NCBI GenBank assembly: GCA_963793595.1
Contig: CAWCBX010000176.1
Span: forward strand, 42-64,041
Length of the DNA stretch: 64,000 nt
Direction: 5' to 3'
DNA from: an uncultured Gammaproteobacteria bacterium
GTDB taxonomy: Bacteria > Pseudomonadota > Gammaproteobacteria > GCA-001735895
A model generated the notes under the pieces. It saw only the letters and a program-made list of their open reading frames with translations, had not been told where the DNA came from and ran no database searches. The position numbers were made by a program, and so were the translations under genes. Below are positions 1 through 55,307 of this stretch, in pieces; position 1 is the stretch's first letter, and each line of letters opens with the position of its first letter.

Positions 1-268
1 GTGGTGATGGCTGAAATACTCGATTCGGCGTCGCTGTTTCTCGACGCGATGCAGGGCTCGATGATGCCGGTAGTCGTCGCCCATGGTGAAGGCCGCGTCG
101 AAACCAGGGATTGCTCCGCGGCCGGCTTGCTCGAACGCCGGCTGGCCTGTCTGCGCTATGTCGATGCCGCCGGCGAGGCGAGCGAGATTTATCCGCTCAA
201 CCCGAACGGCTCTGATCTTGGACTGAACGGCTTTAGCAACGAAGACGGACGCTTCACCATCATGAGAA
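1..268 (+). CDS. purL: Phosphoribosylformylglycinamidine synthase (PurL) C-terminal glutaminase-domain segment. The 5' end is cut by the window start, and the frame is interrupted at 268/269 by a palindromic insertion (the ORF then runs into foreign sequence and stops at 312).
   Basis: Translation HGEGR...[49 protein letters not shown] matches the conserved PurL type-1 glutamine amidotransferase C-terminus. The same peptide recurs at 1967-2108, where it continues into MMPHPERVF... Confidence 0.7.
127..268. repeat. Direct repeat copy 1 (142 bp of purL, cttgctcgaacgccggctggcc...cgcttcaccatcatga); copy 2 at 1967-2108
   Basis: Read directly: 127-268 and 1967-2108 are identical or near-identical and flank the palindrome. 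Confidence 0.85.
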
Positions 269-1966
269 ATAGAAATTTTCTTATATTGCAGGTGGAGATA
301 CAACTGTCGTAAGAGAATACAACTGTAGAATGCATACATGCGTGTCGAAAGCGGATAGGATGCGTATGTGACTAAGGCTGTAGTGCATATCGCTCTAGAA
401 ATATCTCTACATGTAGTTCATGGTTGATTTATTTGTGAACATTAACAGTCAATGCGGAGCAGAAGCTGACTGGAACAAAGCGCCAGAAAAAGCTTCCAAG
501 CGCTGTGTTCCACCTGCAGTCGAGCAGCAGGGAGCAGCAGCAGGGAGCAGCAGCAGCAAACACCAAGTCCCCGAAAAGCCAATAGGGACATCCTGGAAAT
601 CTATATAAACTGGGTAATTTATTCAAAAATACGCCCACTGCGTCTGCATTGTGTGTCGGTTGCTGCTTGGCACCTCGCACCTCGCGCGAACATGGACGTC
701 AAACTTCATCCATCTGAGACTATGAAATAGCCGGATTGGTCAGTGTTCAGTGGCTCGTTGCTTGGGTCACGGTCTCGTAGACCACGTTGACGGCGAGCGG
801 GGTGATTCCGAAGGCCCAGACGGGTGCTGAAGATGGCCTGCTTCCTGTCCAGGACCGTATAATCCACGACGGGCGCCCCGTTCTTCTCCGCCGTCCGGCA
901 GCATCCAAGTCCATTGTGTTGTCAGCTTGGCGTCCATGTTCCCCGCCTTGGCCGCGGCCATGTACTTGAGCACTCCCTGCTCGTACTCGTCGGCGTTGGT
1001 AGTGCGCGTGATGAAAGGAACCGGGCCGTGCCTCAGCAGCGCGCCCACTGCGACGACGGGAAGTACCCGTACGACGCAGTGGGCGCGCTGCTGAGGCACG
1101 GCCCGGTTCCTTTTATTACGCGCATGACCAACGCTCGACGAGTACGAGCAGGGAGCGCTGAAGTACACGGCCGCGGCCAAGGTTTCGAGGTCGAGGCGTG
1201 GGGAACATGGACGCCAAGCCTCAACAACGCGATGGACTGGATGTACCAGAAGCAGGCGGAGAAGGACGGGGCGCCCGTTCGTGGACGTCATATGGTCCTG
1301 GACAGGAAGCAGGCCACTGACCACCGTCTGGCCTTCGGAATCAACCCGCTCGCTGTCAACGTCGTCGACGAGACCGTGACCCAAGCAATGATGCCACTGA
1401 ACACGACGAGTCCGGCTATTACATAGTATCAGATGAAGTAAACTGATGTCGACATGTTCGCGCGAGGTGCGAGGTGCGAAGCAGGGGTGACACGCAATGC
1501 GGACGCAGTGGGCGTATTTTTGAATAAATTACCCAGTTTATATAGATTTCCAGGATGTCCCTATTGGCTTTTCGGGGACTTGGTGTTTGCTGCTGCTGCT
1601 CCCTGCTGCTGCTCCCTGCTGCTCGACTGCAGGTGGAACACAGCGCTTGGAGAGTTTTTTTTCTGGCGCTTTGTCGATTCCAGTCAGCTTCTGCTCCGCA
1701 TTGACTGTTAATGTTCACAAATAAATCAACCATGAACTACATGTAGAGATATTTCTAGAGCGATATGCACTAGCCTTAGTCACATACGCATCCTATCCGC
1801 TTTCGACACGCATGTATGCATTCTACAGTTGTATTCTCTTACGACAGTTGTATATTCCCACCTGCAATCTGGGAAAACTTCTATTTCTCATGATGGTGAA
1901 GCGTCCGTCTTCGTTGCTAAAGCCGTTCAGTCCAAGATCAGAGCCGTTCGGGTTGAGCGGATAATC
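188..1966. repeat. Large imperfect palindrome, ~1.78 kb, with two ~890-bp inverted arms meeting near 1068. Outer 80 bp of each arm is purL sequence (188-268, and its reverse complement 1886-1966). The inner ~800 bp (269-1068 / 1068-1868) is non-purL sequence with a (gcagcagggagcagca)x2 microsatellite in each arm.
   Basis: Reverse complement of 1068-1966 aligns to 188-1068. Long perfectly identical tracts (e.g. 312-480 vs 1660-1828; 500-640 region) are interrupted by clusters of substitutions and indels. The centre is a perfect IR: ggaaccgggccgtgcctcagcagcgcgcccactgcg...cgcagtgggcgcgctgctgaggcacggcccggttcc. Confidence 0.8.
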
Positions 1967-2108
1967 TTGCTCGAACGCCGGCTGGCCTGTCTGCGCTATG
2001 TCGATGCCGCCGGCGAGGCGAGCGAGATTTATCCGCTCAACCCGAACGGCTCTGATCTTGGACTGAACGGCTTTAGCAACGAAGACGGACGCTTCACCAT
2101 CATGATGC
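1967..2108. repeat. Direct repeat copy 2 of the purL 127-268 segment
   Basis: Identical to 127-268 and continues into the authentic purL 3' end. Confidence 0.85.
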
Positions 2109-2227
2109 CGCATCCGGAACGTGTTTTTCGCAGTGTGCAGAATTCGTGGTCCACTCCGGAGTGGGGCGAATACGGCCCGTGGATGCGCATGTTCCGTAAT
2201 GCGCGTCGCTGGATCGACCAGGCGTGA
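1967..2227 (+). CDS. purL: PurL 3' terminal segment resuming after the insertion (…[46 protein letters not shown])
   Basis: Conserved PurL C-terminal motif MMPHPER and tail; stop TGA at 2225-2227 overlaps the start of the next gene. Confidence 0.75.
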
Positions 2228-3315
2228 CCATCAAGCCCAAACCGATAGTTGCCGCCATGGCAGCTTACGCACTGCCGGATATCAGTGCCGCCGAAGGTCT
2301 CGAACCGATTGTACTGGCGCAGAACGAACATGCCTGGCCGCCCTCGCAGCAAGTGCGGGACGCTGTCGGGGCGGCGCTCGACAGGGCGCAGCTTTACCCG
2401 GACGGCGAATGCAAGGAGCTGTGTGCGGCCATTGCCGATGTGCACAAGCTGAATCCCGACAACATTGTATGCGGCTCCGGCTCGATGGAACTGATGTCGG
2501 GCCTGATGCAGGCCTATATGTCGAACGGCGATCGCATGTTGATGTGCGAGTACGGTTACCTGTTTATGCGGACACTCGCTAAACTGGCCGGCGCCACTGT
2601 CGACGTCGCGGCGGAGCCCGCATACCGTGTCGATGTCGATACCTTGCTGGCAGAACTGAGACCGGAAACCAGGCTCGTCTTTGTCGTCAATCCGGGGAAC
2701 CCCTGTGGGAGCGTTATTCACAATGACGAAATCAGGCGCTTACGCGCAGGCCTGCCGGATGACGTGCTACTGCTGGTAGACGAAGCCTACGCTGAATTTG
2801 TCGACGAGGGCTTCCACCCGCCAATTTTTGACCTGGTTGATCTTGGCAACACGGTAGTCACGCGTACCTTTTCCAAGATCTACGGCCTCGCCGGGCTGCG
2901 CGTGGGTTGGGGTTACTTGCCGGATGATGTGCGCGATCAGCTGCGCAAGGTGTTGAACCCCGGCAGCGTTTCCGTGCTATCGCAGGTCGCCGCGCAGGCG
3001 GCGATGCAAGACCAGCAAACCGCACATATCGCGCGTCGGAAAATAGCCGAGCAGCGTGATTACCTGTCGGCACAAATCAGTCAACTGGGGCTAAACGTCG
3101 TACCCAGTCAAACCAATTTTATCCTGGTCGATTTTGTCACACAGGAAGCCGCGGTATCGGCATTTGAGTTTTTGCGCAACCACGCACTGGTGGTGAGGCC
3201 GATGGGTGGTTACGGTTTACCCACCTGCCTGCGGATTACGATTGGCACCGGCGAACAAATGCAAATGACGGCGCACACGCTGGCTGACTGGCGGCAGATT
3301 CATGCGCAGCTTTGA
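2224..3315 (+). CDS. Class I/II PLP aminotransferase, histidinol-phosphate aminotransferase (HisC) family
   Basis: 363 aa. Motif [19 protein letters not shown] (PLP-lysine region typical of HisC-like enzymes); N-terminal substrate-binding region. GTG start overlaps the purL stop. Confidence 0.75.
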
Positions 3316-4072
3316 GCTGGGCGACGTCACGCTGGCGGATACCCGCGCGCGGCGAATCGGCATGATCGTACCGGCATCGAACACGAATGCCGAACCGGAT
3401 TGTCTGCTACTGGCGCCGCCCGGTGTCACCATTCACACCACGCGCAGCGGCGGCTACGATGTCGCGGCAATCCCGGATTCCGATGAAATGCGCCGCTTTG
3501 CGCGCCAGGCGCTTGACCAGCAATTGCAATTACTGGTCGATGGGCGCGTCGAACTGATTGCCTATGCCTGTACTTCGGCCACGCTGGCAGACGGGCCTGG
3601 ATTTGATCAGGCGTTTTGCGACGAAATAACCAGCAAATCAGGGCTGCCGGCGGTGACGACGGCGGGTGCCCTGATCGAAGCGATGCGGGACCTTGGCGCA
3701 CAACGCGTCGCGTTTACTTCACCTTATGTGCAGCAACTGGCCGCCGAGGCGGTCGATTTTATCGAGCAATGCGGAATCGAGGTAGTCAATCAGCTTGGCT
3801 TCGACCAGGCACTTAGCAGCCTCGAGCAAAACGCGTTAACTCCGCAAGATGCTTACCAGATGGGATTAAAAGCGGATCATCCGCAAGCCGAACTGCTGCT
3901 TGTCTCATGCACCGATTACCGCGCCCTGGAAGCGGTTCCAGCGCTTGAACAGGCGCTGGGCAAACCAGTCGTTACGAGTAACTCGGCATTGATGTATGCC
4001 TGTCTCAAACGACTCGAGATCGATATGAGCAGTATCGAGGCCGGTGGCTTTCTGTTTACCCGCCGGAACTAG
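3302..4072 (+). CDS. Asp/Glu/hydantoin racemase superfamily protein (maleate cis-trans isomerase / arylmalonate decarboxylase-like)
   Basis: 256 aa. N-terminal IGMIVPASNTN...C and a second half-site pattern typical of this two-cysteine racemase/isomerase fold. Overlaps the upstream aminotransferase by 14 nt (operon). Confidence 0.6.
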   Translation: MRSFELGDVTLADTRARRIGMIVPASNTNAEPDCLLLAPPGVTIHTTRSGGYDVAAIPDSDEMRRFARQALDQQLQLLVDGRVELIAYACTSATLADGPGFDQAFCDEITSKSGLPAVTTAGALIEAMRDLGAQRVAFTSPYVQQLAAEAVDFIEQCGIEVVNQLGFDQALSSLEQNALTPQDAYQMGLKADHPQAELLLVSCTDYRALEAVPALEQALGKPVVTSNSALMYACLKRLEIDMSSIEAGGFLFTRRN

Positions 4073-4119
4073 TTGTGGATATCGGGGTCTAGGATTAATT
4101 CGAAATTTAAGGGCTGACG

Positions 4120-5061
4120 ATGATTAAAATCAAGAAAAGCTGGGAAATCCCGGAATCCGAGGTAACGCCTGAACCTTTATACCTGCGGCGTCGTGAATTT
4201 ATCAAGACGGGCGGGTTGATCGGCGGTGCACTGCTATTAAACCCGCTGGCGGCCGCGCAAGCCTCGATCGCGATTGGCGACTACCAGAAAGAAGCGGTAT
4301 CGCTGGACGAGGAAATTACCGAAGAAAATGACGCCACCAGCTATAACAACTTTTACGAATTCGGCACCGGCAAGGAAGATCCCAAGCAAAATTCAAAGCG
4401 CTTTCAAACCGATGACTGGAAAATAGTAGTCAGTGGCGAATGCGAGAAACCGGGTACCTACGGTCTCGAAGACCTGGTCAAACCATTCCCCATCGAGGAG
4501 CGTATTTATCGTTTGCGTTGTGTCGAAGCCTGGTCGATGGTAATTCCGTGGCTGGGCATCCCGTTGGGATCAATTTTGAGTAGCATGCAACCAACATCGA
4601 AAGCAAAGTACGTGGCCTTCAGAACCCTGCATGACCCGGTACGCATGCCCGGGCAGCAACGCTCGGTATTGAACTGGCCCTATCGCGAAGGCCTGACCAT
4701 TGCCGAGGCAATGCATCCACTGACGATTTTATCGGTTGGCATGTACGGCAAAACCATGCCCAACCAGAACGGAGCGCCGATTCGGCTGGTGGTGCCATGG
4801 AAGTATGGCTTCAAAAGCATCAAGTCGATTGTCGGTATCGAGTTTACCGAGCAACAGCCGCAGACCTCCTGGAATATGGCCTCTGCGCGAGAGTATGGTT
4901 TTTATTCAAACGTCAATCCCGAAGTCGACCATCCGCGCTGGTCGCAAAAACGCGAGCGCCGTATCGGCGAAATCTTCAAACGCGATACGCTCATGTTTAA
5001 TGGCTATGGGGAAGAAGTCGCCGCGCTCTACGACGACCTGGATCTGACCGCCAATTTCTAA
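4120..5061 (+). CDS. msrP: Protein-methionine-sulfoxide reductase catalytic subunit MsrP (YedY), Mo-cofactor, Tat signal
   Basis: Twin-arginine motif RRREFIK. Near-colinear similarity to E. coli MsrP (YNNFYEFG, ERIYRLRCVEAWSMVIPW, NGAPIRLVVPWKYGFKSIKSIV, DHPRWSQ). Confidence 0.85.
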   Translation: MIKIKKSWEIPESEVTPEPLYLRRREFIKTGGLIGGALLLNPLAAAQASIAIGDYQKEAVSLDEEITEENDATSYNNFYEFGTGKEDPKQNSKRFQTDDWKIVVSGECEKPGTYGLEDLVKPFPIEERIYRLRCVEAWSMVIPWLGIPLGSILSSMQPTSKAKYVAFRTLHDPVRMPGQQRSVLNWPYREGLTIAEAMHPLTILSVGMYGKTMPNQNGAPIRLVVPWKYGFKSIKSIVGIEFTEQQPQTSWNMASAREYGFYSNVNPEVDHPRWSQKRERRIGEIFKRDTLMFNGYGEEVAALYDDLDLTANF

Positions 5062-5062
5062 T

Positions 5063-5683
5063 ATGTCGGTCTCCGCGGCACTCAAGTCCGCCTATGCCAA
5101 ACCAGTTGCGCATCTGCTTTGCCTGCTGCCGTTGATGGTTCTGCTGTGGGCGGCGTTTGATGACGGCCTGGGCGCTAATCCGGTGGAAACACTGACCCAT
5201 GAGACCGGCGAATGGACGCTGCGATTCCTGCTGATTACGCTGAGTATGACCCCGCTACGGCAGTGGACCGGGCTGACATCATGGATACGTTTTCGCCGCC
5301 TGCTCGGGTTGTATGCATTTTTCTATGTCTGTTGCCATTTCATGATCTGGTTTATCGCCGACCATTCGCTCGATGTCGTCGCCATGGTCGAAGATATTAT
5401 CAAGCGTCCATATATAACCCTTGGCTTCAGCGCACTGCTGTTAATGCTGCCGTTGGCGATCACCTCCAATCAGGCGATGATCAGGCGTCTCGGCAAGAAA
5501 TGGAAAAGCCTGCATCAGCTGGTCTACCTGGTCCTGTCGCTTGGGGTGCTGCATTTCATGTGGTTGGTGAAGGCCGACTATCTCGAACCGATAATTTATG
5601 CGATTATCGCAGTTGTATTGTTGCTGCACCGGGCTGGCCCGATGAAGCGCTTCAGCCTGAGATCTTCCCCGGCCGCACGTTAA
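5063..5683 (+). CDS. msrQ: MsrQ (YedZ) heme-binding membrane subunit
   Basis: 206 aa polytopic membrane protein immediately downstream of msrP; matches YedZ pattern (RRLLGLYAFFY..., ITLGF..LLLMLPLAITSNQAM.RRLGKKW..LH.LVY). Confidence 0.8.
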   Translation: MSVSAALKSAYAKPVAHLLCLLPLMVLLWAAFDDGLGANPVETLTHETGEWTLRFLLITLSMTPLRQWTGLTSWIRFRRLLGLYAFFYVCCHFMIWFIADHSLDVVAMVEDIIKRPYITLGFSALLLMLPLAITSNQAMIRRLGKKWKSLHQLVYLVLSLGVLHFMWLVKADYLEPIIYAIIAVVLLLHRAGPMKRFSLRSSPAAR

Positions 5684-5722
5684 GCCGGTAAAAGATAGCT
5701 GGCATCAAACGACTGGAAGTAT

Positions 5723-6733
5723 ATGAAAGTACTGGTTACCGGGGCTGCGGGTTTTATTGGTCAGGCACTTACGCATAGCCTGTGCCAGCGTGGTGACGAG
5801 GTCGTCGGCATAGACAATCTGAATCATTACTACGATGTCGGTCTGAAACAGGCGCGCCTGCAGCAACTCGAAATCTTTACAAACTTCCGCTTCGTCAATA
5901 TGGATTTGGCGGACCAGGTTGCGCTGGATGGGTTGTTCAGGGAATCCCGTTTCGATCGCGTGCTAAATATGGCGGCGCAGGCCGGGGTGCGTTATTCACT
6001 CGAAAATCCGCGCGCATACATCGACAGCAACCTGGTCGGCTTCGGCAATCTGCTCGAGTGCTGCCGACACCATGATATCGAACACCTGGTCTACGCATCG
6101 TCGAGTTCGGTTTACGGTGCCAATCAGAGCATGCCGTTCAGCACCGCGGATAACGTCGATCACCCGATTTCGCTTTACGCGGCTACCAAGAAGGCTAACG
6201 AATTGATGGCTCACAGTTATAGCCATCTTTACCGGATACCAACTACCGGACTGCGTTTTTTCACCGTTTATGGACCCTGGGGACGGCCCGATATGTCGCC
6301 CATCCTGTTTGCCGACGCGATTACGCAGGGTAAGCCGATCCAGGTCTTTAACCAGGGGCGGCACAAACGGGATTTTACCTATATCGATGATATCGTCGAC
6401 GGGGTGATAAGATGCCTGGACAGGATTCCGGCAGGAAATCCGCAATGGTCTGGAATGAACCCGGACCCGGCAAGCAGCAATGCGCCCTGGCAGATTTATA
6501 ACATCGCTCGTGGTGAACCGGTCGAGCTTTTGCATTATATTGAATTAATGGAGCAGGCCCTGGGTAAGACAACCAGCAAGGAGTTACTGCCAGCCCAGCC
6601 CGGGGATGTCGAAGCAACCTATGCCGACATCGATACGCTGGTCGCCGACACCGGATATACCCCGAAAATTTCTATTCAACAGGGTTTAGATCAATTTGTC
6701 GGCTGGTATATGGATTATTACGCGAAAAAATAA
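5723..6733 (+). CDS. NAD-dependent sugar-nucleotide epimerase (UDP-glucuronate 4-epimerase-like, SDR extended family)
   Basis: N-terminal Rossmann VLVTGAAGFIGQ, catalytic YAATKKANE (YxxxK). Confidence 0.75.
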   Translation: MKVLVTGAAGFIGQALTHSLCQRGDEVVGIDNLNHYYDVGLKQARLQQLEIFTNFRFVNMDLADQVALDGLFRESRFDRVLNMAAQAGVRYSLENPRAYIDSNLVGFGNLLECCRHHDIEHLVYASSSSVYGANQSMPFSTADNVDHPISLYAATKKANELMAHSYSHLYRIPTTGLRFFTVYGPWGRPDMSPILFADAITQGKPIQVFNQGRHKRDFTYIDDIVDGVIRCLDRIPAGNPQWSGMNPDPASSNAPWQIYNIARGEPVELLHYIELMEQALGKTTSKELLPAQPGDVEATYADIDTLVADTGYTPKISIQQGLDQFVGWYMDYYAKK

Positions 6734-6814
6734 CATATAATCGAAATTAAAATGCCCGCCAGAGGCCTTTAACCGGGAGAGTTTCTCATCGTTGACAACA
6801 CGCAACAGTCAGCC

Positions 6815-8687
6815 TTGCTAGAGGTTAACAATCTTGCTGTAGACTTTTTACTGCAGGGTAGCCCAGTGCCGGCGTTAATCGATGTTTCCTTTGCCGTCAA
6901 ACCAGGTGAGACGGTGGCCCTGGTCGGTGAGTCGGGTTCTGGTAAGTCGGTCACTTCGCAGGCGATCATGGGAATCCTGCCAGCCAATGCAAAAATTCGT
7001 GCCGGCGAGATCTGGTTCAACAACCCTGAAAGTGGCCAGTTGCTTGATATCGCCGCGCTAGATCCCGATAGCGCGCAAATACGCCAGATACGTGGCGGCG
7101 CCATATCCATCATATTTCAGGAGCCAATGACTTCGTTGTCGCCGGTGCATACCATTGGTGATCAAATCAGCGAAGCGCTGTTCCTGCACCGCGACGCCAG
7201 CCGACAGGAAGGTCTGAAACTGACCGAGACAATGTTGCAACATGTCGGTTTTGCGAACCCCTGCCCGGGCCATGAACATGTATCCGTTCGAATTGTCCGG
7301 TGGATTGCGTCAGCGCGCGATGATTGCGATGGCGATGATTTGCCATCCATCGCTGATGATAGCCGATGAACCGACCACCGCGCTCGATGTAACTATCCAG
7401 GTACGCATCCTCAAATTGATCAGGGAATTGCAGGCTGAGCTCGGCATGGCGATGTTGTTGATTACACATGACCTCGGTGTCGTCGCCAATATGGCAGACC
7501 AGGTGGTGGTGATGTATCACGGCAGGGTTATGGAAGCAGGCCCGTTGCGGGAGCTGTTCAGTAATCCACAGCATGATTATCTCAAGGCGCTGATGCATGC
7601 GGTGCCCCGATTCGATCTGAAACCGGGTGAGCGGCTGGTCCCGGTACGCGAAATTCACTCCGAAACTGGCGCCTTGATCAGGAAAGCCCCACTCGATCAG
7701 GAGCTTGTTTCCAGCGAGCCTCTGTTGAAGGTGAGTGATCTCAGCAAAACCTATCGCCTGCATGGCGGTGGCTGGATCAAGTCTGAATCACAGGACTTGC
7801 TGGCGGTTGACAGCGTGTCGTTCGAGGTCGAGCGTGGTGAGTGTTTTGGCCTGGTCGGTGAGAGCGGTTGTGGCAAGACAACCCTGAGCAAGATCATCAT
7901 GCGCGCGATTACCCCGGACCAGGGTGAGATTACCTACCATGATGGTAGCCAGGCCATCGATGTGCGCGCGCTGCAGGGCGATGACCTGCTTGCTTTCAGG
8001 CGCAAGATGCAGTTTATTTTTCAGGATCCCTATAGCGCGTTGAATCCGCGCATGACGGTGTTTGACATCCTGCGCGAACCGCTAGTCGTGCACGACCTTG
8101 GTGACATGGATTATCAACGCGAAATGGCGACCGAACTGATGCGACTGGTCGGGCTCGACCCACGTTTTTTAAGCCGATATCCGCACAGTTTTTCCGGTGG
8201 CCAGCGCCAACGTATTGGCATCGCGCGCGCCCTTGCGCTGCAACCCGACCTGATTATCTGTGATGAGCCGGTATCGGCACTGGATGTATCGATCCAGGCC
8301 CAGGTGTTGAATCTGTTGAAGGATTTGCAGCAGGAACTCGGGCTTACAGTCGTTTTTATTTCCCATAATCTCGCGGTAATCCACTATATCGCTAATCGTA
8401 TAGCGGTTATGTGCGCAGGGCGTATCGTTGAACTCGCACCGCGCGATAAACTGTTCGAGAACCCGGTTCACCCTTATACCCAGGCACTGTTATCGGCGGT
8501 GCCACACCCGGAACTTTCGCAACCATTGAGTTTCGAGGCGATTACCGAGGGCGCCGCTTCCGATCCGTCCCGGTGGCAATTTCCGTTTACCATCGATGGT
8601 AGCGTGGCAACCGAATTAATGGGTCTCGGTGGTGGTCATTTCGTCAGGGTCACGGCGGGTTCCAGACCAGCCGATGTTGCGGCATGA
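6815..8687 (+). CDS. Fused two-domain ABC ATPase of a peptide/opine-type importer (YejF/DppDF-like). The first NBD is frameshifted (+1) near 7262-7272.
   Basis: ORFs 6815-7369 and 7242-8687 are two frames of one gene. Walker A GESGSGKS then, in the other frame, [12 protein letters not shown], Walker [13 protein letters not shown]. Second NBD has [28 protein letters not shown]. Deleting one base in aaccccTgcccgggcc restores [18 protein letters not shown]. Confidence 0.7.
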
Positions 8688-10591
8688 AAATGCCCTACAA
8701 GGCCATAGCGTTAGGCGCATTCCTGTTACAGATCAGTGCTGTAAATGCATTAGACGGGTTGGTTGAAACGCCTTCACTCACTGCCCAGGTTCAATCCGGT
8801 GAGCTACCGCCGGTTGAGAATAGACTCCCGCGGGAACCGCAACTGGCCCAGTTGCGTCCGGACCAAACTGCAGGCATGCACGGCGGCGAACTGCGCCTTT
8901 TGATGGGAAAACAAAAGGACATACGGCAAATCGTAATTTACGGTTATGCCCGGCTGGTGGGTTACACGCCCGAACTGGATCTCAAGGCAGATATCCTGGA
9001 AAGTTACGAAGCGTTCGAAAATCGAGTCTTTACGCTGCATTTGCGTGAGGGGCATAAATGGTCTGATGGCCACCCCTTCACCAGCGAGGATTTCCGCTAC
9101 TACTGGGAAGATATCGCCAATAACCCGGAACTGTCCAAGGGCGGGCCCGACAAACTATTCATCATCGATGGCGAATTACCGAAGGTCGAGTACCTCGATA
9201 AGTACACCGTAAGATACAGCTGGTCCAGGCCGAATCCGTATTTCCTGCCGGCGCTCGCTGGTGCGCGGCCACTGTATATTTACAAGCCGGCGCATTACCT
9301 GCGCCAGTTTCACGCACGTTATCAAAGCGAAGAAGTGTTGCAGCAGATGATGGATGAGGCTGGCAAACGCAAGTGGACAGGGGTTCATGTCAACAAGGAC
9401 CGTCCTTACAAGGCGACCAATCCGGATCTGCCAACGCTGCAACCCTGGGTCAATTCTACCTATCCGCCTGCGGAGAGATTTATCTTCAAGCGTAACCCTT
9501 TTTACCATCGCATGGACCAGAACGGTCGCCAGTTACCTTATATCGATTCGATTGCGATCAATATTGCATCGAGCAAGCTGGTGCCGGCCAAAACCGGAGC
9601 TTACGAGTCGGATCTGCAGGCGCGTTATTTGCGTATGGATAATTACACGTTTTTAAAATCCAGTGCGAAGCGAAATGATTTTGATGTGCGCCTGTGGCAG
9701 ACCGGCAAAGGTGCACATGTTGCCCTGTATCCGAATCTGAACACCAATGATCCCGCATACCGCGAGCTGATGCGTGATGTGCGCTTTCGGCGAGCGTTGT
9801 CGCTAGCGATCCACCGTTTTGAAATCAATCAGGTGGTTTATTTCCGGCTGGTTCAGGAGAGCAATAATACGGTTCTCGCTGAAGATAAGCTGTATAAGCC
9901 GGAGTACCAGTTTGACGGTATCGAATTCGATCTTGAGCATGCCAACCAGTTGCTCGATGAATTAGGCCTCACCCAACGCGATGATCGTGGTGTGCGCCTG
10001 TTGCCTGACGGGCGTCCGCTTGAAATTCTGATTCAGACTGCCGGTGAAAGCACCGAGCAGACCGATATACTGGAACTGATACACGATAGCTGGCTCGATG
10101 CCGGAATCAAGCTGTATAGCGTACCGTCGACGCGCGAAGTATTTCGTAACCGGATATTTTCCGGTGATGCCATCATGTCGATCTGGTCGGGACTGGAAAA
10201 CGGGATGCCGACCCCGGAGAACAGTCCCAGCGATCTGGCACCCACTACGAAGTACCAGTACCAGTGGCCGCAATGGGGCGCCTACTACGAATCGAGTGGA
10301 AAAAGCGGCGAGGCGCCGGAATTACCCGCGGCCCGGGAGCTTGTCGTTTTGAATGACCAATGGGCCCGTGCCAGAACGCGTGAAGAGCGCATTGCAATCT
10401 GGCATCAGATGCTCGATATCAACCGTGAACAGATGTTCACCATCGGTATCGTCAATCATGTACCGCATCCAGTGGTAGTCAGTAATCAATTGTACAACGT
10501 CCCGGCAAAAGGTTTTTACGATATTTCTCCGGGATCGTACTTTGGCATTTACAAGCCGGATACCTTCTGGTTCGACGAGACGAGGCGCTAA
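8684..10591 (+). CDS. ABC transporter substrate-binding protein, family 5 (oligopeptide/YejA-like)
   Basis: 635 aa with signal peptide; SBP_bac_5 length and pattern. Start overlaps the ATPase stop (ATGA). Confidence 0.8.
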
Positions 10592-11589
10592 TGCTGACCT
10601 ACATTCTGCGCCGGATTCTGACCATGATCCCAACATTGCTGGTGATCAGCATGCTGGTATTCGTCATTATCCAGTTGCCACCCGGGGATTATCTGGAAAG
10701 TCATATCGCCGAACTGCAAAGCCAGGGCGAGTCGGTCGACGAGAATAAAATTGCCTTTCTGCGCGAAGAGTACGGGCTCGACAAGCCGATGCTGCAACAA
10801 TACGGGCAATGGCTTTTCGGTATGCTGCAAGGTGATTTCGGTTATTCCTTCGAGTATGATCTGCCCGTCACCGAGGTGGTCGGAGATCGACTTTTCCTGA
10901 CCGTGATAATCTCGATTACCACTATCCTGTTCACCTGGATTATCGCTTTTCCAATCGGTATTTATTCGGCCACCCATCAATATAGCTGGGGCGACTACGG
11001 GTTATCGACACTGGGGTTTCTGGGGCTGGCGACGCCGAACTTCCTGCTCGCACTGGTGATGCTTTATTTCGCCAACGTCTATTTCGGTACCAGTATCGGT
11101 GGCTTGATGGATGCGGAATATATCGATGCGCCCTGGAGTACCGACAAGATAATCTCGATACTAGAGCATTTATGGATTCCGGTTGTCGTCATCGGTACAT
11201 CAGGTACCGCCGGTATGATCAGACGCCTGCGCGCCAATCTGCTGGATGAACTGCAAAAGCAGTATGTCACCACCGGAAGGGCCAAGGGGCTGCCGCCTGG
11301 AAAATTACTCAGAAAGTACCCACTACGGGTCGCGCTCAACTTTTTTGTCGCCGATATAGGCAACCTGTTGCCGACCGTTATTTCCGGTGCAGAGATAGTG
11401 GCCGTGGTCATGTCGCTGCCAACCACCGGGCCAATTTTGCTCAGCGCGCTGCAAAGCCAGGATATGTACCTGGCCGGGTCTTTTTTGATGTTTCTGGCAT
11501 TGCTAACCGTATTCGGTGTGCTGGTTTCCGATATTGCACTGGCCATGCTCGATCCGCGTATTCGACTCGGTGGAGGCGCCAACAAGTGA
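10591..11589 (+). CDS. ABC transporter permease (YejB/DppB-like)
   Basis: 332 aa, N-terminal [10 protein letters not shown]...LPPGDY typical of DppB/YejB permeases; overlaps neighbours. Confidence 0.8.
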   Translation: MLTYILRRILTMIPTLLVISMLVFVIIQLPPGDYLESHIAELQSQGESVDENKIAFLREEYGLDKPMLQQYGQWLFGMLQGDFGYSFEYDLPVTEVVGDRLFLTVIISITTILFTWIIAFPIGIYSATHQYSWGDYGLSTLGFLGLATPNFLLALVMLYFANVYFGTSIGGLMDAEYIDAPWSTDKIISILEHLWIPVVVIGTSGTAGMIRRLRANLLDELQKQYVTTGRAKGLPPGKLLRKYPLRVALNFFVADIGNLLPTVISGAEIVAVVMSLPTTGPILLSALQSQDMYLAGSFLMFLALLTVFGVLVSDIALAMLDPRIRLGGGANK

Positions 11590-12734
11590 CCACCACGCAC
11601 TTTGTTTCACGCGAACCCTTCGATCCTCATTCGATCGAAGCACTGACCCCGGCGCAGGAAAGGTACTACATGGCCTCGCAGTGGAAACTGATGTGGTGGA
11701 AACTGCGTCGGCACCGGCTGGCCGTTATCTGCGGGGTTATCCTGGCATTAAACTATGCCACGATCATGTTTAGCGAGGTGATCGCGCCCTACAACCTGCA
11801 TACACGCAATACCGAATTTATCTATTCGCCGCCCCAATCGATACATTTATTTCACGATGGCGAGTTTATCGGGCCGTTCGTCTACGGCAGGGATTACGAG
11901 CTCGACATGGATATCCTCAAACGCAACTACCCCGAGAACAGGAATATTGTGCAACCCCTGCGTTTCTTTTGCCAGGGTGACAGCTACCGTTTCTGGGGAC
12001 TGTTTGAGGCACGCTTTCATCTGGTTTGCCCGCCTGAGAATGGCACCTTCTTTTTACTCGGTACCGACCGCCTGGGGCGGGACATGTTTTCCCGCATTAC
12101 CTATGGTGCCCGCATATCGCTCACTATTGGCCTGGTCGGAATAATTATCAGCTTTACCTTTGGCATCCTGATCGGTGGACTCGCCGGTTACTATGGCGGC
12201 TGGGTCGATGCTTCCGTGCAAAGGCTGATCGAGGTAATTCGCTCATTTCCTGAACTACCGCTGTGGATGGCGCTATCCGCGGTATTACCGATAAACTGGA
12301 GCCCGATTCTGATATTTTTCGGGATTACCGTGATTCTGGCATTGCTCGACTGGACCGGGCTGGCACGTGCGGTGCGTTCGAAGTTGCTCTCGCTGCGCGA
12401 GGAAGACTATTGTTCCGCAGCTGAACTGATGGGGGCCAAACCCGGACGCATCATCGGGCGTCATCTTTTGCCCGGATTCATGAGTCATTTGATAGCCTCG
12501 GCGACGCTGTCGATACCGGCGATGATCCTGGGCGAAACTGCGCTCAGCTTTCTTGGCCTCGGCTTAAGGCCACCGGTCACCAGCTGGGGCGTGTTGTTAA
12601 ACGAAGCGCAAAACATCAACGTGGTGGCGCTATATCCGTGGCTGCTATTCCCGGTCGTACCGGTCGTGCTGATCATCCTTACCTTTAACTTCTTCGGCGA
12701 CGGATTGCGTGATGCGGCCGATCCCTACAAGTGA
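11586..12734 (+). CDS. ABC transporter permease (YejE/DppC-like)
   Basis: 382 aa with extended N-terminus before the BPD_transp_1 core; EAA-like loop region (…GAKPGRIIGRHLLP…). Confidence 0.8.
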   Translation: MTTTHFVSREPFDPHSIEALTPAQERYYMASQWKLMWWKLRRHRLAVICGVILALNYATIMFSEVIAPYNLHTRNTEFIYSPPQSIHLFHDGEFIGPFVYGRDYELDMDILKRNYPENRNIVQPLRFFCQGDSYRFWGLFEARFHLVCPPENGTFFLLGTDRLGRDMFSRITYGARISLTIGLVGIIISFTFGILIGGLAGYYGGWVDASVQRLIEVIRSFPELPLWMALSAVLPINWSPILIFFGITVILALLDWTGLARAVRSKLLSLREEDYCSAAELMGAKPGRIIGRHLLPGFMSHLIASATLSIPAMILGETALSFLGLGLRPPVTSWGVLLNEAQNINVVALYPWLLFPVVPVVLIILTFNFFGDGLRDAADPYK

Positions 12735-12737
12735 TCG

Positions 12738-13619
12738 ATGCCTGTCGGCTTTCAGCAACGTGACCGTTGCCCTCTGTGCGGTTCCAGCAGCAACAGGCTA
12801 CTGTGTGACATTCCGTACAGCGATCAACGGCTGGCGAATTTTGTCGAACAGTTTTACCGTGGCAGGGTAGCGTTACAAACGCTGCAATCCGCCAGCTATC
12901 GGGTGGTGCTGTGCGAAGAATGCGATTTTATCTACCAGGATTCGATTCTGGATGAAAAAGGTATGCAAACGCTGTACGAAGACTGGGTCGATCACGAGCA
13001 AAGTTTGCAGCGCAAACAAACCGCAAACAGTCAACGTTACCGCCAGTATGCTGGTCAGGTTCAGGCTCTGGTGGGCTTGCTGAATCAGCGGCCCGATCAA
13101 AGCCGAATTCTCGATTTTGGGATGGGCTGGGGTTACTGGAGCCGGATGGCACAGGCGTATGGCTTTGACGTCGTTGGGTTCGAGTTATCGAATCAACGCA
13201 GAGAATATGCCCGACAAATGGGCGTCAAAGTCATCGATACACTGCCGGCGAGCGTAGCGGATTTCGATTGTGTCTACGCTAACCAGGTATTTGAGCATTT
13301 ACCCGACCCGCTGCAGACCCTGGTAGATCTTTGTCAACAGTTGAAGCCCGGGGGAATAGTTTGTCTTCGCGTACCTGATGGCCGGGGCGTCGCCGCTCGG
13401 CTGGAACAACGAGGCTGGTCGCCTGAACTCGAAGCCGTTCATCCGCTCGAGCACATCAACTGTTTTACCCGAAAGACACTGATAAGCTTTGCGGCAAAAG
13501 CCGGATTAAAGCCTTTTAATCCACCGTTACGTTTAAGCTGGGGGAGTTTATGGGATGGAGTCAGGCGCGAGGTTGCGGATCGACTGCTAACCACACACCT
13601 TTTCCTGAGGCGTCAGTAA
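12738..13619 (+). CDS. Class I SAM-dependent methyltransferase with N-terminal CxxC...CxxC zinc-ribbon
   Basis: 293 aa. CPLCG...CEEC at N-terminus; glycine-rich SAM motif ILDFGMGWGY, acidic residue DVVGFE, motif NQVFEHLPDP, LKPGGIVCL. Starts 3 nt after the permease stop. Confidence 0.6.
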   Translation: MPVGFQQRDRCPLCGSSSNRLLCDIPYSDQRLANFVEQFYRGRVALQTLQSASYRVVLCEECDFIYQDSILDEKGMQTLYEDWVDHEQSLQRKQTANSQRYRQYAGQVQALVGLLNQRPDQSRILDFGMGWGYWSRMAQAYGFDVVGFELSNQRREYARQMGVKVIDTLPASVADFDCVYANQVFEHLPDPLQTLVDLCQQLKPGGIVCLRVPDGRGVAARLEQRGWSPELEAVHPLEHINCFTRKTLISFAAKAGLKPFNPPLRLSWGSLWDGVRREVADRLLTTHLFLRRQ

Positions 13620-13634
13620 CCTTTACCCAGGTAG

Positions 13635-16322
13635 TTACTCGGAGGTTAGCAAATGCTGAAAATGTGCACTGCTGGTTTGCATTTCTGCGAAAGGCCCCTG
13701 GTCGACGAGTTTGCCGCGTTCCATCACCATTACCGCATCGAACTGTTCCGCCAGCTGAACCCGTCCGAGCATCCAGAGGATGCCACGATTTTCCATCTTT
13801 TGCCTGACGTTGCCGATCAGACGACGTTCGCTGGCCGTATCCAGGCTCGATAAGGCTTCATTTACAATCAGCAAATCGGGAGCCTTCAGCAGGGCGCGCG
13901 CAAGCCCCAGTTTCTGGCGTTGAATCGAAGACAGGCGGCCACCGGCGACCCCCACTTCGTATCTAAGACCGGCTTCGATTATCTGGTTGCGCAAGCCAAG
14001 CGACTCGACTACATCAGCAATCAGGGAGTTGATTTTCTGTTGGGCATTGGCCTGGCCGTAGGCCAGTTTTCCGAACAGAATATTGTCCTGGATCGAGATG
14101 CGCGGATTGAAGCTGGACTCATCGAAAAATTCGATGCCTAGATCTTCGGTGGTCGCATGATCATGGATTTGCCGACGCGCGGCGAGTATGCGTTGCTGGA
14201 TAGACTCGGTCATCAATCCCAGTCGATGCCGAGCCACGATCAGCTTGAAAGGTAACGATATCAGGCGCCGGCGGTCGCTTTTCGGCAGGCTTTGCAGATC
14301 ATGCTGCCTGGTTTGTTGTAGCAGTTTGTTGAACTCTGGTAAATCGTCGGCCTGGATAAAGCTGAATTGTTCGAATAGCTCGCTATCGGGTTCGACGTCG
14401 GAGAAAAGGTCGAGCATGATTTCGGTTATCTTGACGCCGGCGTTGAGAAATTCATCGGTCAGGTCATTTTGCTTGAGCGCCTTTTGCATGGCCGGGTAGT
14501 CGATCAATTGTTCGACATCGATGGCGTCGTCGTAAACCGTGCCAAACAACAGGTTCTCCGATACCGTCATATTGAGATTATATTTTTCGTGGTCGAAAGG
14601 TTCGACCAGCCGGGCAATTTCGGGCTCCTTGAATTTGTCACGCAATTGCCGCCGTGCCTGCATAACTCCTGCAATGAGATCGGTATTCTCCGACTGATCC
14701 ACCAACGAGAGTAACCCGAACTGGTAAATTTCCTCATCCATTTCGACGGCTTTGAGAATATCAATAATAAACGCGGTCAGCTGCTCCCGGTTTTCCAGGC
14801 CAAGCGCCTGGAGGTCGATCCAGTCGTCGTCGTAGCGGTTGGGAGAGTTGCCTGCTCGCAGTGCGAGTGCTCGTTCAACTTCCTTGTCGTGGTCGTCAGC
14901 TTCACCAGGTATCGGGTGGTGCTTGAGCGCATAGCATAGATTGTCGTAAACCGTGCCGTTAAACATGAATGCCGCGGTTCCCACATAGCCGAGACGCCTG
15001 CCAGTGATCGATTCAGGCACATTCTCCATTTTCCAGTCACCAATGTTAATGCTGCCCGAACTGGGATTGACCAGTCTCGACATCAGTAAAGCGAGCTCTT
15101 CCTTACCGCTATTGCCCAGTCCCACCGCGGCACAGTGCTGATCTAATGGAAATTTGAAGCTGGTGCCGTCAATGCTGTAATAAAGTCCATCCTCAGTGTA
15201 GCGAATATTGTTAGCCTGAATTTCGCGACCCGGAAATTCGAGTGACTCGGGACGATTGTCGATGATGTCCATTTCGAGCATATTTTGCGGGTCAAACTGC
15301 TGGATGACCTGGCCGTACTTGACCTTTACGTCTTCCTTGCGCTGGTAGTAACGCAGCAGTTCCTTCCATGGACCGGAGAGATCCTTGTAGGCCACCAGCA
15401 CCGCGACCATCGAACCGATGGATAAATCGCCGCGTAACACGAAATAACCACCGACCGAGTAAAAGAAAAAAGGTGTCAGCTGGGCAATAAAATTATTCAG
15501 AAACTTGATGAAAAACTTGCGCTTGTAGATCGCGAAACGAATCAGGTAGATCTTGCCAAGCCGCTGGCTGATATGGGCGCGTTCGTAGTGACTGGTATCG
15601 TTGGCATGAATCTCGGTAATGCCGGAAACGGTTTCGCCGATGCGACCTGACATGTTACGCACCATCGCTACCCGTTCCTTTGAGAGGTTGTTGACGCGTT
15701 TTTGCAGGCGTGGAATCACGACAAGCTGAAACGGGTACAGCGAAATCGCGGCCAGGCCGAGAAACAGGTCCTGTTGAAAGATGAAAACCAGGTAAGTCAG
15801 CAGTATACCGCCCTGAAACACCGGCAGGGTGAAGGATTCGCCGATGAATTCGCCTAAAATTTCCGTCTCTGAAGTGATCATCGGGATCAGTTCATTCGAC
15901 GAAACTCGTTTGAAATGCGGCATTGGAAAGCGCAGGATACGTTCGTAAAGTTCGAACCTGAGTCTGCGCAGCACACGTTCGCCAAGTGCGCCACGGTATA
16001 CGTTTAATAGATACTTTAAACCTCCACTAACAAGCACCACCAGCAGGAAGGCAAAACTGAACAGCAACAGGAACTCGAGACGATCAAGCTCGTAGCCGAA
16101 AATCGCCTGCGGAACTTCCTGTCCTTCGAGCAGGTTGATTATTTTCTTGGGTAGTTCGAGGGTAACGTAAACCAGGGGAAGCGAAACCAGCGACAGTATA
16201 ATCAGGCCTATCTGGTCTTTCTTACTGTGATCAAGTATGTATCTGTAAAGCGATGGTTCCATATATTTCCAGTTTCTGATGCTTACCTGGCCGTCGGGTT
16301 CCAGACCTGGTGTTGCTAGCAC
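13635..16322 (-). CDS. ABC exporter-type protein (N-terminal 6-TM ABC_membrane domain plus C-terminal NBD) with degenerate ATPase motifs and a ~300-aa insertion inside the NBD
   Basis: 895 aa. TMD then NBD: Walker A-like GLGNSGKEEL (no S/T after GK), Q-loop-like YVGTAAF, signature LSSIQRQK (for LSGGQ), Walker B LLIVNEALSSLD (D to N), no H-loop histidine (ILWMLGRVQ). A likely true start is the internal Met (MEPSLYRY…) ~60 nt downstream of the ORF start. Confidence 0.7.
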   Translation of the reverse strand: MLATPGLEPDGQVSIRNWKYMEPSLYRYILDHSKKDQIGLIILSLVSLPLVYVTLELPKKIINLLEGQEVPQAIFGYELDRLEFLLLFSFAFLLVVLVSGGLKYLLNVYRGALGERVLRRLRFELYERILRFPMPHFKRVSSNELIPMITSETEILGEFIGESFTLPVFQGGILLTYLVFIFQQDLFLGLAAISLYPFQLVVIPRLQKRVNNLSKERVAMVRNMSGRIGETVSGITEIHANDTSHYERAHISQRLGKIYLIRFAIYKRKFFIKFLNNFIAQLTPFFFYSVGGYFVLRGDLSIGSMVAVLVAYKDLSGPWKELLRYYQRKEDVKVKYGQVIQQFDPQNMLEMDIIDNRPESLEFPGREIQANNIRYTEDGLYYSIDGTSFKFPLDQHCAAVGLGNSGKEELALLMSRLVNPSSGSINIGDWKMENVPESITGRRLGYVGTAAFMFNGTVYDNLCYALKHHPIPGEADDHDKEVERALALRAGNSPNRYDDDWIDLQALGLENREQLTAFIIDILKAVEMDEEIYQFGLLSLVDQSENTDLIAGVMQARRQLRDKFKEPEIARLVEPFDHEKYNLNMTVSENLLFGTVYDDAIDVEQLIDYPAMQKALKQNDLTDEFLNAGVKITEIMLDLFSDVEPDSELFEQFSFIQADDLPEFNKLLQQTRQHDLQSLPKSDRRRLISLPFKLIVARHRLGLMTESIQQRILAARRQIHDHATTEDLGIEFFDESSFNPRISIQDNILFGKLAYGQANAQQKINSLIADVVESLGLRNQIIEAGLRYEVGVAGGRLSSIQRQKLGLARALLKAPDLLIVNEALSSLDTASERRLIGNVRQKMENRGILWMLGRVQLAEQFDAVMVMERGKLVDQGPFAEMQTSSAHFQHLLTSE

Positions 16323-18215: not shown

Positions 18216-18425
18216 ATGTCATCGGTGCTGACTGATAAGCTCAGTCCGTCAATCCATCCCACGGCTATCTCGAGGAAAAGCCCGCAAAAGTCGCTACCAA
18301 ACGGCAAAAAACGCCGTTTGGCACATCCCTGTGATCGCTTGGAACCCGAGGCGTCGGACCGACTCGGTCAGGCACGAGGGGCTTTACCGGTTTACCCTGG
18401 GGTTATTTTGAACCCGGGGGCGTGG
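18216..18425. repeat. Intergenic structured repeat element, copy B (MITE/REP-like), containing hairpin ccaaacggc-aaaaaac-gccgtttgg at 18297-18321 and core atcgcttggaacccgaggcgtcggaccg
   Basis: Shares an ~85-bp core with 55066-55150 and the 'cgtcggaccg' block with 26150-26165; the flanking ggctatctcgaggaaaagcccgcaaaag resembles 55049-55076. Confidence 0.55.
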
Positions 18426-54994: not shown

Positions 54995-55307
54995 GAGCCC
55001 ACTACTGCCCGGAGTAAACAACTGATCACAGATTCACCGGCGTCCTAAGGCTACCTCGGGGGTCAGTCCGCAAAAGCCGCTCCCAAACGGCAAAAAACGC
55101 CGTTTGGTCCATCCATGGAATCGCTTGGAGCCCGATGCGTCGGACCGCGCCGTCCCTGCCTCGCTACACTTTTGCGGACTGACCCCCGAGGTAGCCACCC
55201 ACTTTAAGGGGAAACCGGTGAAGCCCCTCGCACCGTAAAGGCCGGGTGTTGATTTTTATAACCTACCTGTGCACAGGGGCATTTTATTCCGGAAAGTAGT
55301 GGGCTCT
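54995..55307. repeat. Intergenic structured repeat element, copy A (MITE-like compound palindrome): outer IR 54995-55019 / 55283-55307, inner IR 55049-55076 / 55169-55196, central hairpin 55083-55107 (ccaaacggc-aaaaaac-gccgtttgg)
   Basis: Inverted repeats read directly (agagcccactactgcccggagtaaa vs tttattccggaaagtagtgggctct; ggctacctcgggggtcagtccgcaaaag vs its exact reverse complement). The core is shared with the 18216-18425 element. Confidence 0.6.

Follow-up and report, generated by a model that had tools for sequence, protein, structure and literature searches.

A palindrome interrupting purL near the end of a gammaproteobacterial contig is very probably a chimeric fold-back artifact carrying eukaryotic DNA

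Close to one end of the 64,000-nucleotide stretch of DNA analyzed here (hereafter the window), which was assembled from an uncultured gammaproteobacterium, the purine-biosynthesis gene purL is interrupted by a 1.8-kb palindrome whose arms consist largely of DNA unrelated to purL (referred to as X). Does this structure belong to the genome of the bacterium, and where does X come from? The first-pass annotation of this DNA considered the disruption of purL suspicious in itself and proposed three candidate explanations: a novel fold-back or hairpin mobile element, template switching that captured foreign DNA, or a chimeric assembly artifact. The comparisons described below lead us to the last of these: we regard the palindrome as very probably a chimeric long-read or assembly artifact with eukaryotic contamination, and not a real genomic feature.

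Chance cannot give an architecture of this kind, and the structure is truly present in the sequence (Table 1). According to Pfam, the flanking gene encodes a GATase_5 domain, located at the C-terminus of a large purL of the single-chain type, and beyond the resumed purL the window is ordinary, collinear bacterial genome. The first-pass annotation had described the layout of the palindrome within purL correctly, with coordinates that are off by 1-3 nt. The direct duplication of purL is present as two identical copies, but its spans are those of Table 1 and not 127-268 and 1967-2108; likewise, the piece of purL that is additionally present once in inverted orientation is fully complementary, but is 77 nt long (189-265) and does not span 188-268. 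The two arms of X were said to be non-identical, with perfect tracts and a most divergent inner part, and this is the case: they share 86.6% identity, with 66 substitution and 44 indel columns, the outer parts hold perfect tracts of 82, 95 and ~170 nt, and the inner coding part is the most divergent. A perfect inverted repeat does occupy the center, around the 22-nt spacer, its longest form being 39 bp (1014-1052 and 1075-1113) and not 36 bp. The microsatellite in X and the mirror-image open reading frames (ORFs) at 767-1384 (-) and 914-1426 (+) are also present as described. No repeat comparable to the palindrome exists elsewhere within the 64-kb window.

Table 1. Features of the palindrome and of the flanking purL gene, in window coordinates. 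L082 is a conspecific bacterial contig and L001 a eukaryotic contig (see text).
Feature	Position	Strand	Evidence or remark
purL C-terminal (GATase_5) coding sequence, first pass	1-265	+	Pfam GATase_5, E=2e-20; collinear with L082 7722-7986, 99.2% identity
Copy 1 of the 140-nt purL direct duplication	126-265	+	100% identical to 1966-2105; single-copy in L082 (7847-7986)
Left arm of X, antisense eukaryotic DNA	266-1052	-	L001 10979 down to ~10181; blastn 89.7%, 13 gap openings
Left-arm part downstream of the P0002-like gene	266-746		Within left arm
13-nt-unit GCAGCAGGGAGCA-type repeat in X	523-558	+	Mirrored at 1588-1623
Left-arm frameshifted remnant of the P0002-like gene	747-1052	-	Translation needs three frames
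Turn of fold-back 1, 22-nt spacer ACGACGGGAAGTACCCGTACGA	1053-1074	+	Present once only, in gene sense; identical to L001 ~10158-10179
Right arm of X, sense	1075-1887	+	L001 ~10180-10979; blastn 93.1%, 14 gap openings
End of right-arm gene remnant, true stop	1398-1400	+	Downstream region follows
Inverted copy of purL 265 to 189	1888-1964	-	Mirror image of the purL/X junction; 100% complementary to 189-265
Fold-back 2 junction, T + CTTGCTCG	1965-1973	+	Read directly from the sequence; the T at 1965 is extra
purL resumption from its nt 126: copy 2 (1966-2105), then unique 3' end, stop 2225-2227	1966-2227	+	Pfam GATase_5, E=8e-30

Conspecific assemblies were found by look-up of the 313-aa molybdopterin oxidoreductase encoded in the window, the look-ups that found matching contigs being those with ORFs 4120-5061 and 5063-5683; exact look-ups with ORFs 2224-3315 and 5723-6733 and with the protein P0001 (see below) returned no contig. 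One of these contigs, L082 (ENA ERZ27251236, 40 kb), has the same gene neighborhood and ~99% nucleotide identity to the window. In L082, an independent assembly of the same organism from a different sample, the palindrome is absent and purL is uninterrupted, encoding 1291 aa with all domains present. Window position 265 corresponds to L082 position 7986 and window position 1966 to L082 position 7847; therefore, excising 266-2105 restores the conspecific sequence exactly, and the purL protein obtained after excision aligns without gaps to those of related gammaproteobacterial metagenome-assembled genomes (MAGs), at up to 87% identity. Hence purL is most likely intact in the real organism, and the suspicion raised by its disruption as assembled was justified, given that an artifact would explain it. 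Absence from one conspecific assembly is nevertheless compatible with a strain-specific or rare real variant.

The location of the palindrome on its contig is also informative. The contig to which the window belongs is public and 64,980 bp long, leaving at most 980 nt to the left of the window, whereas in L082 a further 3,489 nt of purL precede the point that matches window position 1. Therefore, the contig ends within purL, no more than ~1.2 kb away from the palindrome. Unresolved overhangs of chimeric reads are usually found at such breaks.

The bacterial population itself, defined by ~99% nucleotide identity and the same gene order (L082-L086), recurs across independent public datasets, namely ENA ERZ27251236, JGI 3300032262 and the Logan assemblies SRR9045819, ERR11443741 and ERR12040029. 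The purL of the nearest GTDB representative shares only 87% amino-acid identity (MAG 21_Jan_SF_Bin30). At its 3' end, the purL stop codon overlaps the GTG start codon of a downstream class I/II aminotransferase gene (GTGA, 4 nt; window 2224-2227), an ordinary case of translational coupling that is also seen in L082 (8105-8108).

X had been thought to lack a conserved reading frame, which proved to be wrong. The inner, GC-rich third of each arm encodes a recognizable protein when translated piecewise across all three frames, and the stitched translation matches a family of 160-200-aa proteins represented in MMETSP marine-protist transcriptomes, JGI datasets and ENA/Logan assemblies; no Pfam family was matched by the X protein. 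One member of this family, P0002 (167 aa, intact, with a signal-peptide-like N-terminus), is encoded on L001, a 112-kb ENA metagenome contig. Neighbors of the P0002 gene include zf-MYND/RING and GH72 genes, indicating that L001 is a eukaryotic nuclear contig. Using blastn, both arms of X match L001 at 10155-10979, the left arm running from 10979 to 10161 and the right arm from 10155 to 10979. The database search of X that had been recommended thereby returned both a protist protein family and a matching DNA locus. X comprises residues ~53-167 of a 167-aa P0002-like gene, which is approximately two thirds of the gene, together with 475 nt of downstream DNA, and on the strength of these sequence matches its source is a marine microbial eukaryote (a marine protist). 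The sole coding content of X is this truncated, frameshifted gene, and the earlier statement that X is without a transposase was accurate. The inner end of X lies mid-gene, at ~residue 53 of 167, and the outer end lies at an arbitrary point within a segmental duplication of L001. We considered whether the outer end could coincide with a natural repeat or element boundary in L001 and rejected this, as the duplication continues for at least 420 nt past the end of X. The 132-aa protein P0001, recorded at NCBI and ENA, corresponds to a frameshifted right-arm ORF (window 1028-1426, +), and is a spurious bacterial protein derived from noisy eukaryotic DNA. Its record gives a contig of 64,980 bp, and this match is what identifies the window's contig as public and sets its length.

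The eukaryotic locus has features of its own. The segmental duplication of L001 (10650-11400 versus 5175-5934; ~89% identity over at least 750 nt) takes in DNA lying downstream of the P0002 gene as well as a portion of the neighboring convergent ORF. The protist protein family (L001 10001-10504; homologs P0002-P0031) is characterized by the motifs DDGKYPYDAVG, YEQGxLKY and NNAMDWxYQK and by a signal-peptide-like N-terminus, and its members carry neither a Pfam domain nor an annotation.

With L001 as an independent reference for X, we aligned it with the right arm and with the reverse complement of the left arm to assess how the arms differ. The three sequences agree in 692 columns. The left arm alone departs from the other two in 64 columns, including 27 indels, and the right arm alone in 40, including 13 indels; in 6 columns all three differ. 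The two arms agree against L001 in only 20 columns, 13 of which represent a single extra microsatellite unit; being common to both arms, this additional GCAGCAGGGAGCA-type unit is a feature of the template and not noise. Where the arms differ, one of them is almost always identical to L001. Given that most differences are private to one arm and few are shared, both arms derive from one template that is ~99% identical to L001, relative to which each shows 5-8% of changes of its own, many of which disrupt the reading frame. Some of the arm indels fall at homopolymers (T8 read as T5), and both arms are frameshifted, differently in each. In contrast to the 13.4% difference between the arms of X, the duplicated purL segments show no differences in 217 nt, for which the probability under a uniform rate is ~3e-14. 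The bacterial remainder of the window (62 kb) is similarly clean: window 1966-14000 aligns to L082 at 98.95% identity, with only one gap in 12,035 nt, and 93% of the window is occupied by long ORFs, whose median length is 320 aa. Consensus quality thus falls to read-level error at the arms, with their many indel columns and frameshifts, while the flanks are clean. The simplest reading of this pattern is that the arm differences are sequencing-type noise as opposed to shared evolutionary divergence. The suggestion that the arms are old or gene-converted copies was not supported, since the differences are private to single arms relative to L001. Private differences in each arm would, however, also be expected from real divergence after a real duplication. 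Furthermore, the arm errors are clustered and not uniform, and for this reason interpreting the palindrome as an artifact needs the auxiliary assumption of partial polishing. We also considered whether the variants private to the left arm could originate from the paralogous copy on L001; this was rejected, as inspection by eye of about eight positions near the outer end showed agreement at only one.

The junctions provide information on how the structure was put together. At the purL/X junction (265/266), purL is joined to L001 position 10979 with ~0 nt of overlap, and the same junction is found in mirror image at 1887/1888. Therefore, the template that was copied into the second arm already contained it. 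At fold-back 1, the antisense arm runs as far as L001 ~10181 and the sense arm takes over from ~10158, a jump of ~23 nt with a 3-nt overlap (GCG), and the spacer between the arms is present in the sense orientation only. At fold-back 2, purL in inverted orientation breaks off at ~nt 187-189 and is taken up again in forward orientation from nt 126, a jump of ~60 nt. This second fold-back sits exactly at a 7/8 inverted quasi-repeat in purL, formed by CTTGCTCG at 126-133 and CGAGCGAG at 179-186, with an overlap of 7/8 nt between CTTGCTCG and the reverse complement CTCGCTCG. No adapter or other extra sequence was found at the center or at the junctions. Neighboring segments map to opposite strands of one source locus, both for the X arms on L001 and for purL 189-265 versus 1888-1964. 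Inverted rearrangements primed at 2-21 complementary nt made up more than 85% of the chimeras reported by Lasken & Stockwell 2007 (PMC1855051), and according to a review, chimera overlaps peak at 5-8 nt with favored distances of tens to hundreds of nt (PMC9984789). The overlaps and jumps at both fold-backs are of the short-microhomology, short-distance kind that marks such inverted chimeras (PMC1855051; PMC9984789).

Taking these observations together, window 1-2105 would represent the tail of a single chimeric long read, or of a very small number of them, which the assembler attached to the end of an otherwise correct marine gammaproteobacterium contig; both the single-read support and the sequencing platform are what we infer. 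Formation of the chimera would have begun with a blunt join between purL, after nt 265, and an arbitrary point in the nuclear DNA of a co-occurring eukaryote (L001 10979). A strand switch inside the eukaryotic gene would then have caused the chimeric strand to be copied back through the purL/X junction into reversed purL, before a second strand switch at the 8-nt inverted quasi-repeat in purL returned synthesis or reading to the forward direction from purL nt 126. The bacterial parts may be perfect because they were polished by many genuine bacterial reads, and the eukaryotic arms could have stayed near raw-read quality because almost nothing else covers them. Candidate in vitro sources include switching of the phi29 multiple displacement amplification (MDA) type, fold-back synthesis during repair or library preparation, and ligation followed by read-through.

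Several known systems resemble this structure. In common with inverted chimeras from phi29 MDA (PMC1855051; PMC9984789; Pacasus, PMC6218980), the palindrome is built from opposite-strand segments with more than one inversion per molecule, and has short complementary junctions (here 3 nt and 7/8 nt) spanning short distances (here ~23 and ~60 nt). Reads of this kind likewise enter long-read assemblies as inverted duplications, as documented for palindromic reads (PMC6218980; PMC13265396; PMC13141652). However, published inverted chimeras are mostly intramolecular (PMC1855051; PMC9984789), whereas here the purL/X junction joins two genomes without overlap. Being intermolecular with ~0 nt of overlap, it belongs to a rarer class for MDA chimeras, which counts against an artifact. 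Nanopore ligation libraries yield both inverted-repeat and cross chimeras without amplification (PMC13141652), and PacBio reads in which a SMRTbell adapter was missed likewise run through a sequence and then through its reverse complement, both halves showing errors at read level (PMC6218980), as in the arms of X; cross chimeras of unrelated fragments also occur in both types of library (PMC13141652; PMC6218980). Unlike such reads, the palindrome shows no adapter or signal gap at its center, and its turn is asymmetric, with a 22-nt single-copy spacer, and is not a blunt mirror. Moreover, the second fold-back, 60 nt away in purL, is unexplained by simple template-then-complement read-through. 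The asymmetric spacer and the second fold-back therefore fit polymerase switching better than simple read-through. Finally, quasi-palindrome and template-switch rearrangements in vivo share the geometry of a nascent strand switching at a short inverted repeat to give an inverted duplication, but differ from the structure described here, which contains foreign eukaryotic DNA and noisy arms, is absent from conspecifics and lies at a contig end. Of the three initial candidates, a chimeric assembly artifact is thus the one supported by the noise pattern, the intact purL of L082, the contig end and the junctions. Template switching that captured foreign DNA stands as far as the anatomy is concerned, with two fold-backs at short inverted homologies and one foreign junction, but not as an event in the cell, the switching having most likely taken place in the test tube or the sequencer.

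Could the same anatomy have arisen in a living cell? A eukaryotic fragment might have been captured in purL by illegitimate recombination and replication template switching, leaving a palindromic insertion with a 140-bp target duplication in one lineage or cell that was then sampled by a low-coverage read. Fork switching would be expected to leave junctions at short inverted homologies as its signature, and the structure does return to purL on the correct strand and in register. Against this, the insertion would inactivate a purine-biosynthesis gene that the conspecific population keeps intact, and its noise of ~5-8% per arm, rich in indels, sits beside perfect co-duplicated purL segments. A young event should have left clean arms and an old one diverged purL copies. 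In addition, the palindrome lies at a contig end, and long perfect palindromes are unstable in bacteria. We consider such a rare in vivo variant very unlikely. That the structure is real in a minority of cells, two template switches in succession having captured protist nuclear DNA where a fork had stalled in purL, is a version to which we attach only a slight probability. Were the structure real, it would document bacterial capture of eukaryotic DNA via template switching, and if confined to a minority of cells it would show cross-domain DNA acquisition in progress, through illegitimate recombination based on replication. Horizontal gene transfer from a eukaryote to the bacterium was also considered and rejected: X is absent from the conspecific L082, is ~99% identical to the eukaryotic contig once noise is discounted, and carries a gene that is truncated and differently frameshifted in each arm.

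An error could instead have arisen purely in the computer, separate bacterial and eukaryotic reads having been stitched through spurious overlaps with no chimeric molecule involved. DNA of both kinds evidently co-occurs in such samples, and the structure is found at a contig end. Yet there is essentially no shared sequence at 265/266 that could have served as an overlap, the junction is found a second time as its own mirror image, and both fold-backs involve short jumps at short inverted homologies, all of which favor one folded-back molecule or read over graph errors. This makes a purely computational misjoin improbable. Least credible, and in our estimate close to impossible, is a mobile element, whether a non-autonomous one of the fold-back or hairpin type or an insertion derived from an insertion sequence (IS). 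The long inverted arms and the flanking direct duplication are reminiscent of one; however, each arm includes 77 nt of host purL, the duplication measures 140 bp as opposed to the short target-site duplications of about 2-14 bp, and X, which has no transposase, consists of the 3' portion of a eukaryotic gene and the DNA that follows it, with arbitrary endpoints. The first-pass annotation had already recognized that this is not a simple insertion with a short target duplication. Its suggestion of a novel mobile element was not substantiated, X being a random piece of a eukaryotic nuclear locus, and neither did a copy of X attached to a transposase come to light: no other copy of X or of the junction is present in the 64-kb window, an exact 43-mer of X had no match in GTDB genomes or JGI metagenomes, and an exact 28-mer of the junction had none in JGI metagenomes, these being weak scans with one 43-mer and one 28-mer of collections that may lack the sample. 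With no element-like ends, host DNA in the arms and no other copies, a mobile element is effectively refuted.

The value of interpreting the palindrome as an artifact lies mainly in quality control, as it would mean that a public MAG contig contains ~1.6 kb of eukaryotic contamination in a terminal fold-back chimera. A naive annotation would read purL as disrupted and lead to a prediction of purine auxotrophy, and the chimera has already given rise to the spurious protein record P0001 at NCBI and ENA. The locus also serves as a worked example of signs by which an artifact may be recognized from the letters alone, namely noisy arms beside perfect host duplicates, fold-backs at microhomologies and position at a contig end, to which can be added differences that are private to one arm relative to an independent reference.

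Elsewhere, no tRNA genes and no Rfam families at the gathering threshold were detected in window 1-64000. A separate 105-nt direct repeat with 84% identity is located at window 18257-18361 and 55043-55147, and did not match Rfam. Both copies contain a conserved hairpin, CCAAACGGC-AAAAAA-CGCCGTTTGG. One copy falls in a 161-aa ORF without a Pfam match, and the other is intergenic, between lysyl-tRNA synthetase-like and CitMHS transporter genes. The repeat may represent a small REP/MITE-like element or act as a terminator module.
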